NCBI GenBank assembly: GCA_951406725.2 | Contig: OX597824.1 | Coordinates: 76,384,001 to 76,448,000 of the forward strand | Length of the DNA stretch: 64,000 bases | Direction: 5' to 3' | Source of the DNA: Octopus vulgaris | Lineage: Eukaryota | Shown here: piece after piece, positions 16,519 through 43,199 of the stretch | Layout: every line of letters begins with the position of its first letter | Position numbering within the stretch: position 1 is the stretch's first letter | Notes under the pieces: model-generated | The model's input: only the letters and a program-made list of their open reading frames with translations | The model's database searches: none | Told to the model about the DNA's origin: nothing | Made by a program: the position numbers and the translations under genes

Positions 16519-16715
16519 TAACTTTCTAGGTGCAATCCCGTGGTTATTCATGACCGAAGGGGGGTCACCCATATGTATATATATATATATATATCACAAT
16601 CAAGGAACGGCCATAATAGGCCATTCACCCACTAGAAATAACAGCCAAAAGCTTTAACCGCAAAATAACATTAATACCGTAAACCAGGAGAAAATTGAAA
16701 AACTTTTACCCTGTA

Positions 16716-16822
16716 ATTTCTTAGACGATGCACCGTTTCATCTACCGTTTAATGGTAAACTAACCTGATTAAATTAAATCAAGCCAATCCACCATAGGCC
16801 CTTAGACTCATCAGTAAGAAAT
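16716..16822 (-). ncRNA. Type I hammerhead ribozyme (array copy 1)
   Basis: Reverse complement of the motif at 17956-18062. Confidence 0.8.
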
Positions 16823-17200
16823 AGCCAAATCGGAACAGATATTTTTCACGAGGCATTCCTCTTGCTACCTCGGCAATATCTGACCTAAAATTTTCAAATC
16901 GTCGCACTCGCGCCAAATTTATCGGCAGCAAATAAACCACCGATTCCGTTACGGAACTAACCAGAAAATTCATAATTAATCAATATAGGGTGGCAAAAAA
17001 ATTTTTGTAGAATTCTTTTGCCACCAGCGGCCTAGTAGGAAAAAATTAAATAGTCATAAACCATTTTTACGTTCAACATCACAATCAAGGAACGGCCATA
17101 ATAGGCCATTCACCCACTAGAAATAACAGCCAAAAGCTTTAACCGCAAAATAACATTAATACCGTAAACCAGGAGAAAATTGAAAAACTTTTACCCTGTA

Positions 17201-17307
17201 ATTTCTTAGACGATGCACCGTTTCATCTACCGTTTAATGGTAAACTAACCTGATTAAATTAAATCAAGCCAATCCACCATAGGCCCTTAGACTCATCAGT
17301 AAGAAAT
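17201..17307 (-). ncRNA. Type I hammerhead ribozyme (array copy 2)
   Basis: Same motif, offset by 485 bp. Confidence 0.8.
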
Positions 17308-17955
17308 AGCCAAATCGGAACAGATATTTTTCACGAGGCATTCCTCTTGCTACCTCGGCAATATCTGACCTAAAATTTTCAAATCGTCGCACTCGCGCCA
17401 AATTTATCGGCAGCAAATAAACCACCGATTCCGTTACGGAACTAACCAGAAAATTCATAATTAATCAATATAGGGTGGCAAAAAAATTTTTGTAGAATTC
17501 TTTTGCCACCAGCGGCCTAGTAGGAAAAATTAGTTTACCATTAAACGGTAGATGAAACGGTGCATCGTCTAAGAAAATACAGGGTAAAAGTTTTTCAATT
17601 TTCTCCTGGTTTACGGTATTAATGTTATTTTGCGGTTAAAGCTTTTGGCTGTTATTTCTAGTGGGTGAATGGCCTATTATGGCCGTTCCTTGATTGTGAT
17701 GTTGAACGTAAAAATGGTTTATGACTATTTAATTTTTTCCTACTAGGCCGCTGGTGGCAAAAGAATTCTACAAAAATTTTTTTGCCACCCTATATTGATT
17801 AATTATGAATTTTCTGGTTAGTTCCGTAACGGAATCGGTGGTTTATTTGCTGCCGATAAATTTGGCGCGAGTGCGACGATTTGAAAATTTTAGGTCAGAT
17901 ATTGCCGAGGTAGCAAGAGGAATGCCTCGTGAAAAATATCTGTTCCGATTTGGCT

Positions 17956-18062
17956 ATTTCTTACTGATGAGTCTAAGGGCCTATGGTGGATTGGCTTGAT
18001 TTAATTTAATCAGGTTAGTTTACCATTAAACGGTAGATGAAACGGTGCATCGTCTAAGAAAT
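17956..18062 (+). ncRNA. Type I hammerhead ribozyme (array copy 3), extended stem II
   Basis: Stem I ATTTCTTA/TAAGAAAT (8 bp). Core CTGATGA at 17964-17970. Stem II GTCTA/TAGAT encloses a long hairpin. GAAA at 18039-18042. Stem III ACGGT-gc-ATCGT. Cleavage triplet GTC at 18052-18054. Confidence 0.85.
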
Positions 18063-18440
18063 TACAGGGTAAAAGTTTTTCAATTTTCTCCTGGTTTACG
18101 GTATTAATGTTATTTTGCGGTTAAAGCTTTTGGCTGTTATTTCTAGTGGGTGAATGGCCTATTATGGCCGTTCCTTGATTGTGATGTTGAACGTAAAAAT
18201 GGTTTATGACTATTTAATTTTTTCCTACTAGGCCGCTGGTGGCAAAAGAATTCTACAAAAATTTTTTTGCCACCCTATATTGATTAATTATGAATTTTCT
18301 GGTTAGTTCCGTAACGGAATCGGTGGTTTATTTGCTGCCGATAAATTTGGCGCGAGTGCGACGATTTGAAAATTTTAGGTCAGATATTGCCGAGGTAGCA
18401 AGAGGAATGCCTCGTGAAAAATATCTGTTCCGATCTGGCT

Positions 18441-18547
18441 ATTTCTTACTGATGAGTCTAAGGGCCTATGGTGGATTGGCTTGATTTAATTTAATCAGGT
18501 TAGTTTACCATTAAACGGTAGATGAAACGGTGCATCGTCTAAGAAAT
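18441..18547 (+). ncRNA. Type I hammerhead ribozyme (array copy 4)
   Basis: Identical motif, offset by 485 bp. Confidence 0.85.
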
Positions 18548-18925
18548 TACAGGGTAAAAGTTTTTCAATTTTCTCCTGGTTTACGGTATTAATGTTATTT
18601 TGCGGTTAAAGCTTTTGGCTGTTATTTCTAGTGGGTGAATGGCCTATTATGGCCGTTCCTTGATTGTGATGTTGAACGTAAAAATGGTTTATGACTATTT
18701 AATTTTTTCCTACTAGGCCGCTGGTGGCAAAAGAATTCTACAAAAATTTTTTTGCCACCCTATATTGATTAATTATGAATTTTCTGGTTAGTTCCGTAAC
18801 GGAATCGGTGGTTTATTTGCTGCCGATAAATTTGGCGCGAGTGCGACGATTTGAAAATTTTAGGTCAGATATTGCCGAGGTAGCAAGAGGAATGCCTCGT
18901 GAAAAATATCTGTTCCGATTTGGCT

Positions 18926-19032
18926 ATTTCTTACTGATGAGTCTAAGGGCCTATGGTGGATTGGCTTGATTTAATTTAATCAGGTTAGTTTACCATTAAA
19001 CGGTAGATGAAACGGTGCATCGTCTAAGAAAT
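18926..19032 (+). ncRNA. Type I hammerhead ribozyme (array copy 5)
   Basis: Identical motif, offset by 970 bp. Confidence 0.85.
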
Positions 19033-19709
19033 TACAGGGTAAAAGTTTTTCAATTTTCTCCTGGTTTACGGTATTAATGTTATTTTGCGGTTAAAGCTTT
19101 TGGCTGTTATTTCTAGTGGGTGAATGGCCTATTATGGCCGTTCCTTGATTGTGATGTTGAACGTAAAAATGGTTTATGACTATTTAATTTTTTCCTACTA
19201 GGCCGCTGGTGGCAAAAGAATTCTACAAAAATTTTTTTGCCACCCTATATTGATTAATTATGATTATATATATATATATATATATATGACGGGCTTCCAA
19301 ACAGTTACCACCGACTAAATTCACTCACAAGACATTGTTCGGGCAGGAGCTATAGTGGAAATCCCTTGCCCAAGGTAGCATGCAGAACCCTAAACGATAT
19401 GGTTGCAAAGTGAGCTTCTCACCGAAAGATAGATATTTTCTACCGATAGATAGATATTTTCAAAGTAGCTAAACAACACTTTATTGTAGACACTGGGTGA
19501 GATACTGATTAAAAATGGACAAGAATTTATGCACAGAAAAATAACAATTTTCAAATTAAAGCTTTAATAAAAACAATTTATTAATACAAGATGCAAATAA
19601 ATGTGTTGTAGGAAAAGTATTCATGTATTTTAGAAAATACTTTATGTGTATGGTCGTATTTGTAAAGCCAATGATATAATGTGTGTATTATGTATAATAG
19701 CATTATGCG

Positions 19710-35644: not shown

Positions 35645-37572
35645 GATCTGAAAAGGGAGGAAAAACAACAAATAGAAGTGTGTCTGTTGTGCTAAATAGC
35701 CATTATTTAATTAATAAAACAAGGTGAGTAGGTTTACAGCTGTTTCTATGTACCAAAGTTGAGGTAAACAGGTGTTTACTCGTTGCAAATGGTAGACGTC
35801 ATCAGAACGAAGAAGGCAGAGATAGACAAAGAGGGGAATAGGGCAAAAGATAGAGGGAGAAATTGGAAAGGAAAAGTTCAATGATTCGAACGTCTTACAT
35901 TTTAGTTGTGTTCAAAGTTCATTAAAATAATTGTGGGGTAGTTCAATAATAGAGGATGGTTGAATCCGAAGTCACGTAGTTAGTTATTATCATTAACGAA
36001 TTATAAGTTTAGCGAAACTTAGAGAATACAAATCTGCCTTTATGCAGACAAAAATATCATTTTAATATTTCTTATTGAGTGGAGGTGAATTGGCCATTAA
36101 TATTAATAGCTATTCTGTTTCACAGAGCTGACAGTGCTTACTGTTAATAGCATAAGACGAAGCTTTTTCTAGGATACGCCATTCTAAACTATAGTTGATT
36201 TTTTTGTCTTTTAGTTCCCAAATGTAGCTACTAAGTCCTGTAGAGTTTGCTTTACTTCTATTTCTAAATGTAGATTGTTGGGAAATCTATCTAAGTATTA
36301 TTTCATTTTTCGTGGCTCCTACATAAGATTTCGTGTGGCTATTTGTGAGTATGTCGCATTGGTATATTACGTTTTTTTTGTTATACACCTATTGGAGAAT
36401 TGATACTTATTACGGTATCTGCAACCACAAAAATTATTCGGTTTATCTGTGCTTATGTTGTGTTGAGGATGGTAATTATTTATCAGGTTCGTGTTGTTTG
36501 CGGGTGGGCCAATAGGGACGAGATTAATTCCATTTGTTTTTTGGCTGTTATGTTTTATGCTGGTATTTTTTCTAGTTTCGTAGAAAGCGTCTAGCTTATT
36601 ATTGATGATCGAGGCTATGATGGTAGCTAGGTTACTAACAAGGATATGACCTACTCTAATTTTATTCTTAAAGATTCCTGAGTGTTTGTTATTTAAGTTC
36701 AAGTGCTTATCTATAAGTCTCATTATGGAGTGAACTATGTTAGATTTAGGCTGTATCGCGTAGGGGATTATTAACCAGATCTTATCGCTATTTCGTTTAT
36801 TTTTAATATTATTATTTTTGGCGTAGAAGCTATCCTCAGTATTCGTGTAGAGTGTAAAGTTGCTGTTATAATTATTATATTCTTTCTATAATTACTTTTA
36901 TTTTTATTATTGTTAGTGTGGGTTTTATTGGGGTTATTTATGTACGGTTTTTTAAAGTTATATGGCTTGGTGTTATCAATCGTCACTGGGGTTATATTAG
37001 CTCTTTGAGGTTCGTTGTTTGTATTCTTCTTCTTCTTCTTCTTCTTCTTCTTCTTCTTCTTCTTCTTCTTCTTCTTCTTCTTGTTATTATTATTGTTATT
37101 GTTGTTGTTGTTGTTATTTTTGTTGTTGTTGTTGTTGTTGTTAGTCGTGTTAGTATTCTTAATTTTCTTACTTTTTACATTTTTAGTATTAGTTTTATTA
37201 TCATTTTTAATGTTGTTAGTTATCTTAGTTTGAATCTTAGCTTTATTTCTTCAGCTTTTTTTTTTGATATCATTGTTATTAATCTTATCTATGCTGTTCA
37301 TATTGTTAATGTGGTTATTAGTTTCGACTGGAGTGTGGCTAGTGTTGTGATAATTGTCTTGGGCGTTATTGTTATTCCGGTTATTTGTATAGTGTTCTAA
37401 GTCTAGGTATTTCAATTTTTGTTCGTACCTTGCTTTTTCGAATGTGCTATTGTAGAAATCCTTATACTTATTGAAGATATCTAGGTTAGAGGAGAGGCGT
37501 AAAATTATTTTGCTAACGCTATGTACTAATCCTCTTTTAATAAAGTTTGGATGGTTTCTGGATGCGCTTATA
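35645..37572 (-). mobile_element. 5'-truncated, decayed Penelope-like element (RT thumb, GIY-YIG endonuclease, 3' repeat region)
   Basis: Minus strand: [12 protein letters not shown]...RLSSNLDIF (thumb), IWFN.P, and IYQC..SYVGAT....WELKDKKINYSLEWRILEKA...CQLCETE (GIY-YIG region). Internal trinucleotide expansions. Both ends abut (TA)n. Confidence 0.8.
35732..35808 (-). ncRNA. Type I HHR (degenerate) at the 3' end of the Penelope-like element
   Basis: Minus strand: GTT-CTGATGA-..TACCA..GAGTAAAC/GTTTAC.CTC..TGGTA..-GAAA-CAGCTG-TA-AAC. Stem III is palindromic, the triplet is GUA, and the stem II closing pair is broken. Confidence 0.6.
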
Positions 37573-37595
37573 TGCACATATACATATATATATAC

Positions 37596-42227: not shown

Positions 42228-43140
42228 GAAGCACTCCGCCGGTCACGACAATGAGGGTCACAGCTGATATGATCAGCGGAAGAGCTTGCTCGTGAAGTAA
42301 ACGTGCATGTGGCTGAGAACTCCACAGACACGTGCACCCTTAACGTAATTCTCAGGCAGATTTAGTGTGGCACAGAGTGTCCCACTGCGACAACGCTGGC
42401 CCTTTGAATTACAGGTACAACTCATTTTTGCCGGACTGGTGCAGCGTGAAATAAAGTGTTTTGCTCAAGGACACAACGGGTCGCCTGGAATTGAACTCAC
42501 GACCTTACGATCGTCAGCCGAATGTCCTAACCACTAAGCCACGCGCCCTCACGTCTGATACGATCAACGGAACAGCTTGCTCGTGAAATTAATTTGCAAG
42601 TGGCTTAGCACTCCACAGACATGCATACCCTTAACGTAGTTCTCAGGGAGATTCAGCGTGACACAGAGTGTGACAATGTTGGCCCTTTGAAATACAGGTA
42701 CAACTCATTTTTGTCAGCTGAGTGAACTGGAGCAACGTGAAATAAAGTGTCTTGCTCAAGGACACAACACGTCGCCTGGAATTGAACTCACGACCTTACG
42801 ATCGTCAGCCGAATGTCCTAACCACTAAGCCACGCGCCCTCACGTCTGATACGATCAACGGAACAGCTTGCTCGTGAAATTAATTTGCAAGTGGCTTAGC
42901 ACTCCACAGACATGCATACCCTTAACGTAGTTCTCAGGGAGATTCAGCGTGACACAGAGTGTGACAATGTTGGCCCTTTGAAATACAGGTACAACTCATT
43001 TTTGTCAGCTGAGTGAACTGGAGCAACGTGAAATAAAGTGTCTTGCTCAAGGAAACAACACGTCGCCGGGAATTGAACTCACGACTTTACGATCGTCAGG
43101 CGAATGCCCTAACCACTAAGCCACACGCACTCACGTCTGA
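42228..43140 (-). mobile_element. Tandem trimer (291-bp period) of SINE family D
   Basis: CACGTCTGA recurs at 42550, 42841 and 43132. Each unit has a tRNA-like head, CCTTGAGCAAGACAC and a family C-like tail. Confidence 0.85.
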
Positions 43141-43199
43141 TTTATGTACAGCAATGTATGAAGTACTCTGCCAAATTTGAAATGCATATTATTGTATTG

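Follow-up and report, generated by a model that had tools for sequence, protein, structure and literature searches.

Long stem II of a predicted type I hammerhead in a two-armed, non-coding Penelope-type retrozyme of Octopus vulgaris

Introduction

A hammerhead motif in the genome of Octopus vulgaris has a stem II that is drawn out into a long hairpin rich in G.U pairs. It lies within a stretch of 64,000 nucleotides (assembly GCA_951406725.2, contig OX597824.1, forward strand, 76,384,001 to 76,448,000), here called the window; all positions below are those of the window unless stated otherwise. Is this hairpin maintained as RNA, how did its G.U pairs arise, and what does it do for the ribozyme? 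Helix II has been given as about 4 bp in canonical hammerheads and as 6-8 bp in those of Penelope elements (PMC4209133; statements from the literature here and below refer to the available parts of each source). The class of element and cleavage as a dimer are already known. Our reading, to which we assign a probability of roughly 0.65, is that the hairpin forms the outer part of stem II in a type I hammerhead motif, carried by a two-armed repeat in (TA)n that is young and non-coding; an internal loop of stem II would pair with the flank beside helix I and would likely be held in place by the hairpin.

Results

Anatomy of the hammerhead

The 68 nt at 17971-18038 of the plus strand were confirmed as stem II of a predicted type I hammerhead (Table 1). 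The motifs CUGANGA, GAAA and NUH were found around a three-way junction with helix I open, and covariation was observed across relatives for helices I, IIa and III. By direct reading and by script, stem II was resolved into a 5-bp helix IIa, a 7x7 internal loop and a 19-bp hairpin; the sequence-only reading from which this work started was correct in counting six G.U pairs among the 19 bp and in naming G.U as the first pair of stem II (17971/18038). It had also described a stem III with a 2-nt loop. The quasi-palindrome at 18042-18053 is real, but a 2-nt loop cannot be closed within one strand, and the single-strand form would instead have 4 bp and a UGCA loop.

An Rfam search of the whole window gave no hit at gathering level. 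Each of the five copies of the hammerhead scored 22 bits with Hammerhead_1 (RF00163) compared to a gathering threshold of 34, and stem II was scored as an insertion. Elsewhere in the unit, a GGGTAAAYGT-like motif just 3' of helix I (18064-18077 and equivalents) was found to be kept across the clan of relatives. A second, GC-clamped hairpin is present at 18228-18275, between the two fixed 3' ends described below, with its pairing kept in relatives as judged by eye.

Table 1. Features of the host insertion and of its hammerhead, in window coordinates.
Feature	Position	Strand	Remarks
Whole insertion	16593-19263		Two back-to-back arms of the 485-nt unit, in a (TA)n microsatellite
Inverted arm	16593-17529	-	1.9 units, ending (outer 3' end) at unit position 230; complete hammerheads 17307-17201 and 16822-16716
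Tandem arm	17530-19263	+	3.6 units, beginning within stem II at unit position 60 and ending (outer 3' end) at 338
Complete hammerheads of the tandem arm	17956-18062, 18441-18547, 18926-19032	+	
Predicted pseudoknot strand, GGCU	17952-17955	+	Putative; directly 5' of helix I
Helix I	17956-17963/18055-18062	+	8 bp; 5' strand 17956-17963; covaries among relatives
Catalytic core box, CUGAUGA (DNA CTGATGA)	17964-17970	+	Intact
Helix IIa	17971-17975/18034-18038	+	5 bp, opens with G.U; pairs 2-5 are alternative Watson-Crick pairs in other subfamilies
Internal loop, 5' strand	17976-17982	+	GCC at 17979-17981, predicted partner of the helix I flank
Distal hairpin	17983-18001/18008-18026	+	19 pairs, six G.U, 6-nt loop, (UUUAA)n-like tip
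Internal loop, 3' strand	18027-18033	+	
Core GAAA	18039-18042	+	
Stem III	18042-18053	+	12-nt quasi-palindrome
GUC triplet and predicted cut	Cut between 18054 and 18055	+	

The host insertion

The host of the hammerhead is a Penelope-type retrozyme. Present as dispersed copies, it is built from non-coding tandem units that all carry a type I hammerhead, as in non-LTR retrozymes, and it has tandem and inverted 5'-truncated arms, two fixed 3' ends and a microsatellite target, as in non-autonomous Penelope elements. The core of the window hammerhead was found to have 427 matches in the 2.8-Gb assembly (control, 0), and the 100 matches listed were nearly identical. No coding frame of at least 200 aa arising from the unit was detected in 100 loci. 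In the sample of 32 insertions, 25 were two-armed, one arm ended at unit positions 227-235 and the other at 331-338 in 21 of these 25, and 51 of 54 3' ends fell within one of these two ranges. The remaining four two-armed insertions comprised two with an end outside the analysed stretch and two with a shortened arm.

Since both fixed ends are 3' ends in the hammerhead orientation, the hammerhead strand was likely the template. The unit would be transcribed on this strand, and reverse transcription into (TA)n DNA at a nick would start from two internal points (unit positions ~230 and ~336). An anole element has been shown to prime internally at two sites (PMC11167929), a layout of tandem copies, inverted copies and tail is typical of Penelope-like elements (PMC8557442), and the retrozymes of animals have been suggested to descend from Penelope elements as non-autonomous forms (Li, Clavereau and Pollet 2026, bioRxiv 10.64898/2026.07.22.740005). 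Twelve variants private to one insertion were found to occur in all of its units, often in both arms; such uniformity fits a single circular template and also a uniform donor array. The unit was also present in contigs of runs that are only guessed to be RNA. Spliced introns, suggested by GT...AG stretches in the unit, were discarded, as no such joint was detected in four contig sets, although contigs cannot prove absence. Apart from the insertion, the window contains a 291-nt tandem repeat of three copies, 91% alike, at 42264-43141.

Variation of the hairpin across relatives

The sequence-only reading had proposed a covariation check across genomic copies. The hairpin was aligned in 28 of 52 distinct variants, with near-duplicates, junction-truncated copies and single-copy mutants excluded. 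By this approach, 96.8% of the cells of the 19 hairpin pairs were found to be paired, compared to 24-48% in slid controls. Six pairs were invariant, nine varied on one side only, one changed on both sides (A-U/G-C) and three departed by unpaired cells, and toggling between G.U and Watson-Crick pairs was observed at nine pairs. The percentage paired, the number of both-side changes and the covariation score, all three inflated by relatedness, were above all 500 shuffles; two pair-count measures were not (433/500 and 491/500). Unlike these subfamily differences, the changes confined to single insertions among 32 young insertions broke a pair in four of four cases within the hairpin stem, a count for which 17 alignments below 96% identity, all outside the ribozyme, had been skipped.

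Across the clan, stem II ranges from 54 to 78 nt, and the hairpin varies in sequence and length. The layout of a 4-5-bp proximal helix followed by an internal loop and then a hairpin was kept in 94 variants. The number of G.U pairs per relative was found to be 0 to 7 among 40 relatives, with the window copy at 7; thus, the six wobbles represent the upper-range state of a toggling helix and not a fixed signal. The G.U pairs would be tolerated single-step toggles between Watson-Crick states, kept for RNA pairing and individually dispensable.

The first pair of stem II (10.1-11.1) was GC in 25, AU in 20, GU in 18, AA in 18, AC in 11 and GA in 2 of the 94 variants. The window copy has G.U in place of G10.1-C11.1, a pair also present in a distant branch; as one of six states in the clan, it is unremarkable there. 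Catalysis may be weak in the 31 of 94 variants with a first pair of A.A, A.C or G.A. Natural exceptions to G10.1-C11.1 have been published in the form of U-U (PMC3088659, PMC7229834).

Origin of the G.U pairs

Five sites were found to be fixed in the insertions of the family, with a state seen in none of nine uniform sister loci. At four of them the sisters have A and the family has G (17971, 17988, 18032 and 18306, the first three within stem II), the fifth is C in the sisters and T in the family, and none is T in the sisters and C in the family. This pattern raises the possibility, tentative and on balance doubtful, that some of the G.U pairs are scars of A-to-I editing, in which an ADAR-edited founder RNA would have fixed G at 17971, 17988 and 18032. 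Such an origin is compatible with the best explanation of the hairpin, as it concerns only how the pairs came about. Among the 70 changes confined to single insertions only 4 are A>G, contigs from two DNA runs mostly show A at the three positions in stem II, and the sister contexts, for which the neighbour preference of ADAR serves as yardstick, have A, U, C and A on the 5' side and never G, with one UAG. The argument is weakened by the small number of sites, five only and picked out after the fact, and by selection for pairing, which likewise favours a change from A-U to G.U. Editing would account for just one of the six hairpin G.U pairs in addition to the first pair, and the alternatives to the six G.U in relatives are A-U (three pairs), G-C (two) and both (one). 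Furthermore, A>G is absent from the hairpin among 32 young insertions, an A>G excess is absent from the putative RNA contigs, and the direction of change is read from the sister copies alone. Ongoing hyper-editing of young copies was dismissed, as it was seen neither in the 32 insertions nor in the putative RNA contigs. A literature search on RNA editing in retrozymes returned no description of this design. If the A/G diagnostic sites are edits, RNA editing feeds heritable change into an active mobile element.

The internal loop and likely role of the arm

The proximal helix has the length of an ordinary helix II, which places the internal loop where loop 2 normally meets helix I. Across the clan, the internal loop was found to carry RCC and the flank just 5' of helix I to carry GGY. 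Among the 94 variants, the combinations of flank and loop were GGC:GCC in 48, GGT:ACC in 27 and GGT:GCC in 7 (pair-compatible in 82 of 94), with two incompatible and ten missing a partner. In a set of 40 relatives drawn from the 94 variants, one per lineage and with rows failing the pseudoknot pairing left out, the upstream partner was Watson-Crick in 34, one of the misses (L063) being a script artefact. The downstream GGG was Watson-Crick in 12 of the 40 and was rejected as a partner for this poorer fit. In a tree inferred from the remaining sequence, the base in the loop changes once and that in the flank five times, never giving A.C. The case for pairing consists of two near-invariant dinucleotides and a single independent covariation (sign test p 1), too little for significance. 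Taken together, these comparisons tip the balance slightly towards a pseudoknot of 3-4 bp that joins the internal loop to the flank 5' of helix I. Pseudoknots between stem I and stem II have been predicted for ~40% of hammerheads and raise rates (PMC3088659).

In the proposed mechanism, the hairpin would fold first and close the internal loop, and GCC of the closed loop would pair with GGC 5' of helix I, drawing helices I and II together. The internal loop likely replaces loop 2, the added hairpin likely keeps this loop in register and, according to this model, the arm likely braces the ribozyme. Alternatively, the hairpin could be a tolerated passenger on loop II, a harmless extension in which mismatches are purged only for misfolding and which forms no pseudoknot. 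We consider this unlikely. Free variation in length and sequence, a tip that slips in 5-nt units and the lack of statistically supported covariation in the pseudoknot are as a passenger would have them; GG and CC, however, are kept amid otherwise variable single-stranded stretches, and a short-armed member of the clan was not seen, though the searches had demanded long arms.

Somewhat less probable is that the distal hairpin is gripped by the Penelope protein, or by an RNA-binding protein of the host, which would chaperone the ribozyme or choose the RNA for copying, with the AU-rich tip as signal. The tip does not vary in sequence across 28 relatives chosen without regard to it; unrelated families, coding ones among them, also have long arms; and the anole Penelope hammerhead cleaves only with its protein added (PMC11167929). 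Yet the RNA required in the anole element sits downstream of the ribozyme, this tip is absent from the other long-armed families, and the Hydra hammerheads in print have a short stem II (PMC8557442 File S2). Arm 5' ends, moreover, show no excess within stem II (7 of 58, compared to 6.7 expected), a count, from a sample biased by the choice of loci for carrying the core, on which the hairpin was also rejected as a stop for reverse transcriptase.

The bracing and editing readings may be joined: loop 2 would be the pseudoknotting internal loop, the hairpin grafted on as its cap would double as a substrate of ADAR, and editing of a founder RNA would have written G.U pairs including 10.1-11.1. We regard this combination as a long shot; if true, an edited founder family spread to hundreds of copies, and RNA editing would drive the germline evolution of ribozyme variants. 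The possible pseudoknot and the possible editing scar are the parts most worth testing. The clan provides a natural mutagenesis series of ~94 variants, in which the contact between helices I and II, tolerance at 10.1-11.1 and dependence on a dimer become testable. In another long-armed family (L088, L089, L096 and L098-L100; ~585-nt units), helix I was observed to be bulged and stem II to open after 4 bp into a small internal loop rich in purines, an arrangement that resembles the canonical loop-loop contact.

Strand-specific folding

Stem II was found to fold at -26.3 kcal/mol as sense RNA (z -5.96; 0 of 200 shuffles), at -9.5 kcal/mol as antisense RNA (z -1.35) and at -5.3/-4.4 kcal/mol as DNA. 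The longest unbroken helix in the unit is 19 bp on the sense strand versus 6 bp on the antisense strand, and was never above 15 bp when the unit was shuffled 1000 times. In the set of 40 relatives selected as above, the sense strand was more stable than the antisense strand in 39. Thus, the pairing is specific to the hammerhead-sense strand, as had been claimed from the sequence, and the strand-specific fold together with the pair-keeping variation in relatives supports the further claim that the structure of stem II is selected at the RNA level on that strand. A decayed DNA inverted repeat, with no function at the RNA level, is highly improbable and already refuted by the strand asymmetry: inverted repeats form readily in these elements and the insertion is itself inverted, but neutral decay would yield G.T and A.C equally, whereas G.U was observed at nine hairpin pairs and A.C was confined to two, once in a subfamily and once in a single copy, and stem II does not fold as DNA. 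In a two-unit context, the hairpin alone was found to persist, with helices I and III at ~0 probability (ViennaRNA).

Stem III and predicted dimer cleavage

Stem III is self-complementary in nearly all of the 94 variants, and its pair 3/10 was found as G-C, U-A, A-U and C-G around a central UGCA. The predicted energy of stem III is about -0.1 kcal/mol in the monomer and -17.5 for the intermolecular 12-bp duplex. The lowest monomer fold sequesters the core and is more stable than the active one by 4.2 kcal/mol, and the fold of the alignment likewise sequesters the core. From these models, cleavage of a dimer through a shared helix III is plausible, in line with the inference of the sequence-only reading. 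A single copy, its core sequestered, would be mostly inactive, and a pair of copies would cleave by forming a common helix III of 12 bp, perhaps aided by a protein. Dimeric cleavage is the known mode for animal type I hammerheads (PMC4209133; PMC6155905), and the published Penelope hammerheads are slow or protein-assisted. A cleavage footprint at arm 5' ends was discarded as a candidate, as 0 of 58 ends were at unit position 100 (the predicted cut) and the nearest were at 108, 110 and 113. A search for further stem III variants gave 2 matches versus 3 in the control search. In a sister array (L061), the stem III site that matches 18045 was found to be G in two units and A in one.

Long stem II in the genome and in coding elements

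When one core pattern was searched across the genome, 471 matches had their boxes 35-64 nt apart (control, 1) and 14 had them 5-34 nt apart (control, 5). For two further patterns, the counts were 199 (control, 0) and 831 (control, 50). Thus, a long stem II is the rule in this genome; its description as unusually long holds relative to most published examples but not within this genome, where 471 long arms compare to 14 short ones. Long arms hide such motifs from Rfam and standard descriptors, and ribozyme counts are thereby too low in genomes of this kind.

Long arms were also found in coding elements. In a coding Penelope-like family of 894-908 aa, the hammerhead has a stem II of 55 nt (150 scored of 16,413 candidates). 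One locus (L141, G000:C1:119513500-119523499) carries tandem 3.6-kb copies with an intact 894-aa element of reverse transcriptase and GIY-YIG type, in which DKT, CxxC, CxH and YRDD are present, RWL replaces RWK and the flanks are (TA)n; no Pfam or PDB hit was obtained for this element. The DKT, CxxC and CxH motifs point to the Hydra clade as the likely group of this family, which is apparently very active. Neptune was dropped as the coding partner after the motif check (DKT, CxxC, CxH). Two more coding remnants with long-armed hammerheads were detected, one of them at ~36 kb in the window. The latter (35735-37574, minus strand) is Penelope-like, has decayed, and matches the intact family at up to 42% identity; behind it lies a type I hammerhead whose stem II measures 52 nt (core 35805-35735).

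Comparison of the window unit with the coding family and other families gave no sequence match, and the clan hammerhead was not found behind a related ORF in the loci examined. As the unit has no sequence match to these coding elements, we infer its mobiliser, which was likely a Penelope-like enzyme and likely one of the Hydra clade. At another locus (L101, 4600-7020), a clan retrozyme array was observed beside a 5'-truncated coding element in the same (TA)n tract. Three long-armed cores spaced 5.1-5.4 kb were found at L081 and L082 (G000:C1:159094433-159105047), where no open frame of at least 250 aa was detected.

Comparison with known hammerheads and elements

Like the host described here, animal non-LTR retrozymes consist of tandemly repeated non-coding units, a few hundred bases long, that each carry a type I hammerhead (PMC7229834; bioRxiv 10.64898/2026.07.22.740005). 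They differ from it in stem II, given as ~4 bp and a loop (Cervera and de la Pena 2020, PMC7229834) compared to 68 nt here, and the window element is set apart by regular two-armed insertions with two fixed ends and by the lack of a detected sequence link to a coding element. The hammerheads of Penelope elements (Cervera and de la Pena 2014, PMC4209133) likewise are of type I with a palindromic helix III, predicted dimeric cleavage and a helix II that exceeds the canonical length. Their palindromic helix III is described as small, whereas that of the window copy is 12 nt, and stem II here has 24 pairs and an internal loop, with G10.1-C11.1 not conserved (25 of 94 variants).

Elements of the Hydra clade (Craig et al. 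2021, PMC8557442) share with the window insertion the (TA)n target, the tandem and inverted layout and a terminal tail, although their tail is 30-40 nt compared to ~106 nt here and the window unit is non-coding. The coding family of this genome shares DKT, CxxC and CxH with that clade (PMC8557442) and carries a long-armed hammerhead. In the 26 rows of Hydra hammerheads in File S2 of PMC8557442, stem II and its loop are at most 24 nt, compared to 68 nt here. A partial precedent is found in two spike-moss PLE-X rows of the same file, with stem II regions of 53 and 37 nt. A description of this long-stem-II design was not found in our literature search, and could be held in figures, most supplements or Arkhipova et al. 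2017. As in pseudoknot-braced hammerheads (Perreault et al. 2011, PMC3088659), the base pairing predicted here would fasten helix I to helix II. The PK hammerhead has a pseudoknot of 6 bp in place of helix II (Zhan et al. 2024, PMC11300833); here the predicted pseudoknot would be of 3-4 bp and would start from an internal loop of the long stem II, with helix II retained.
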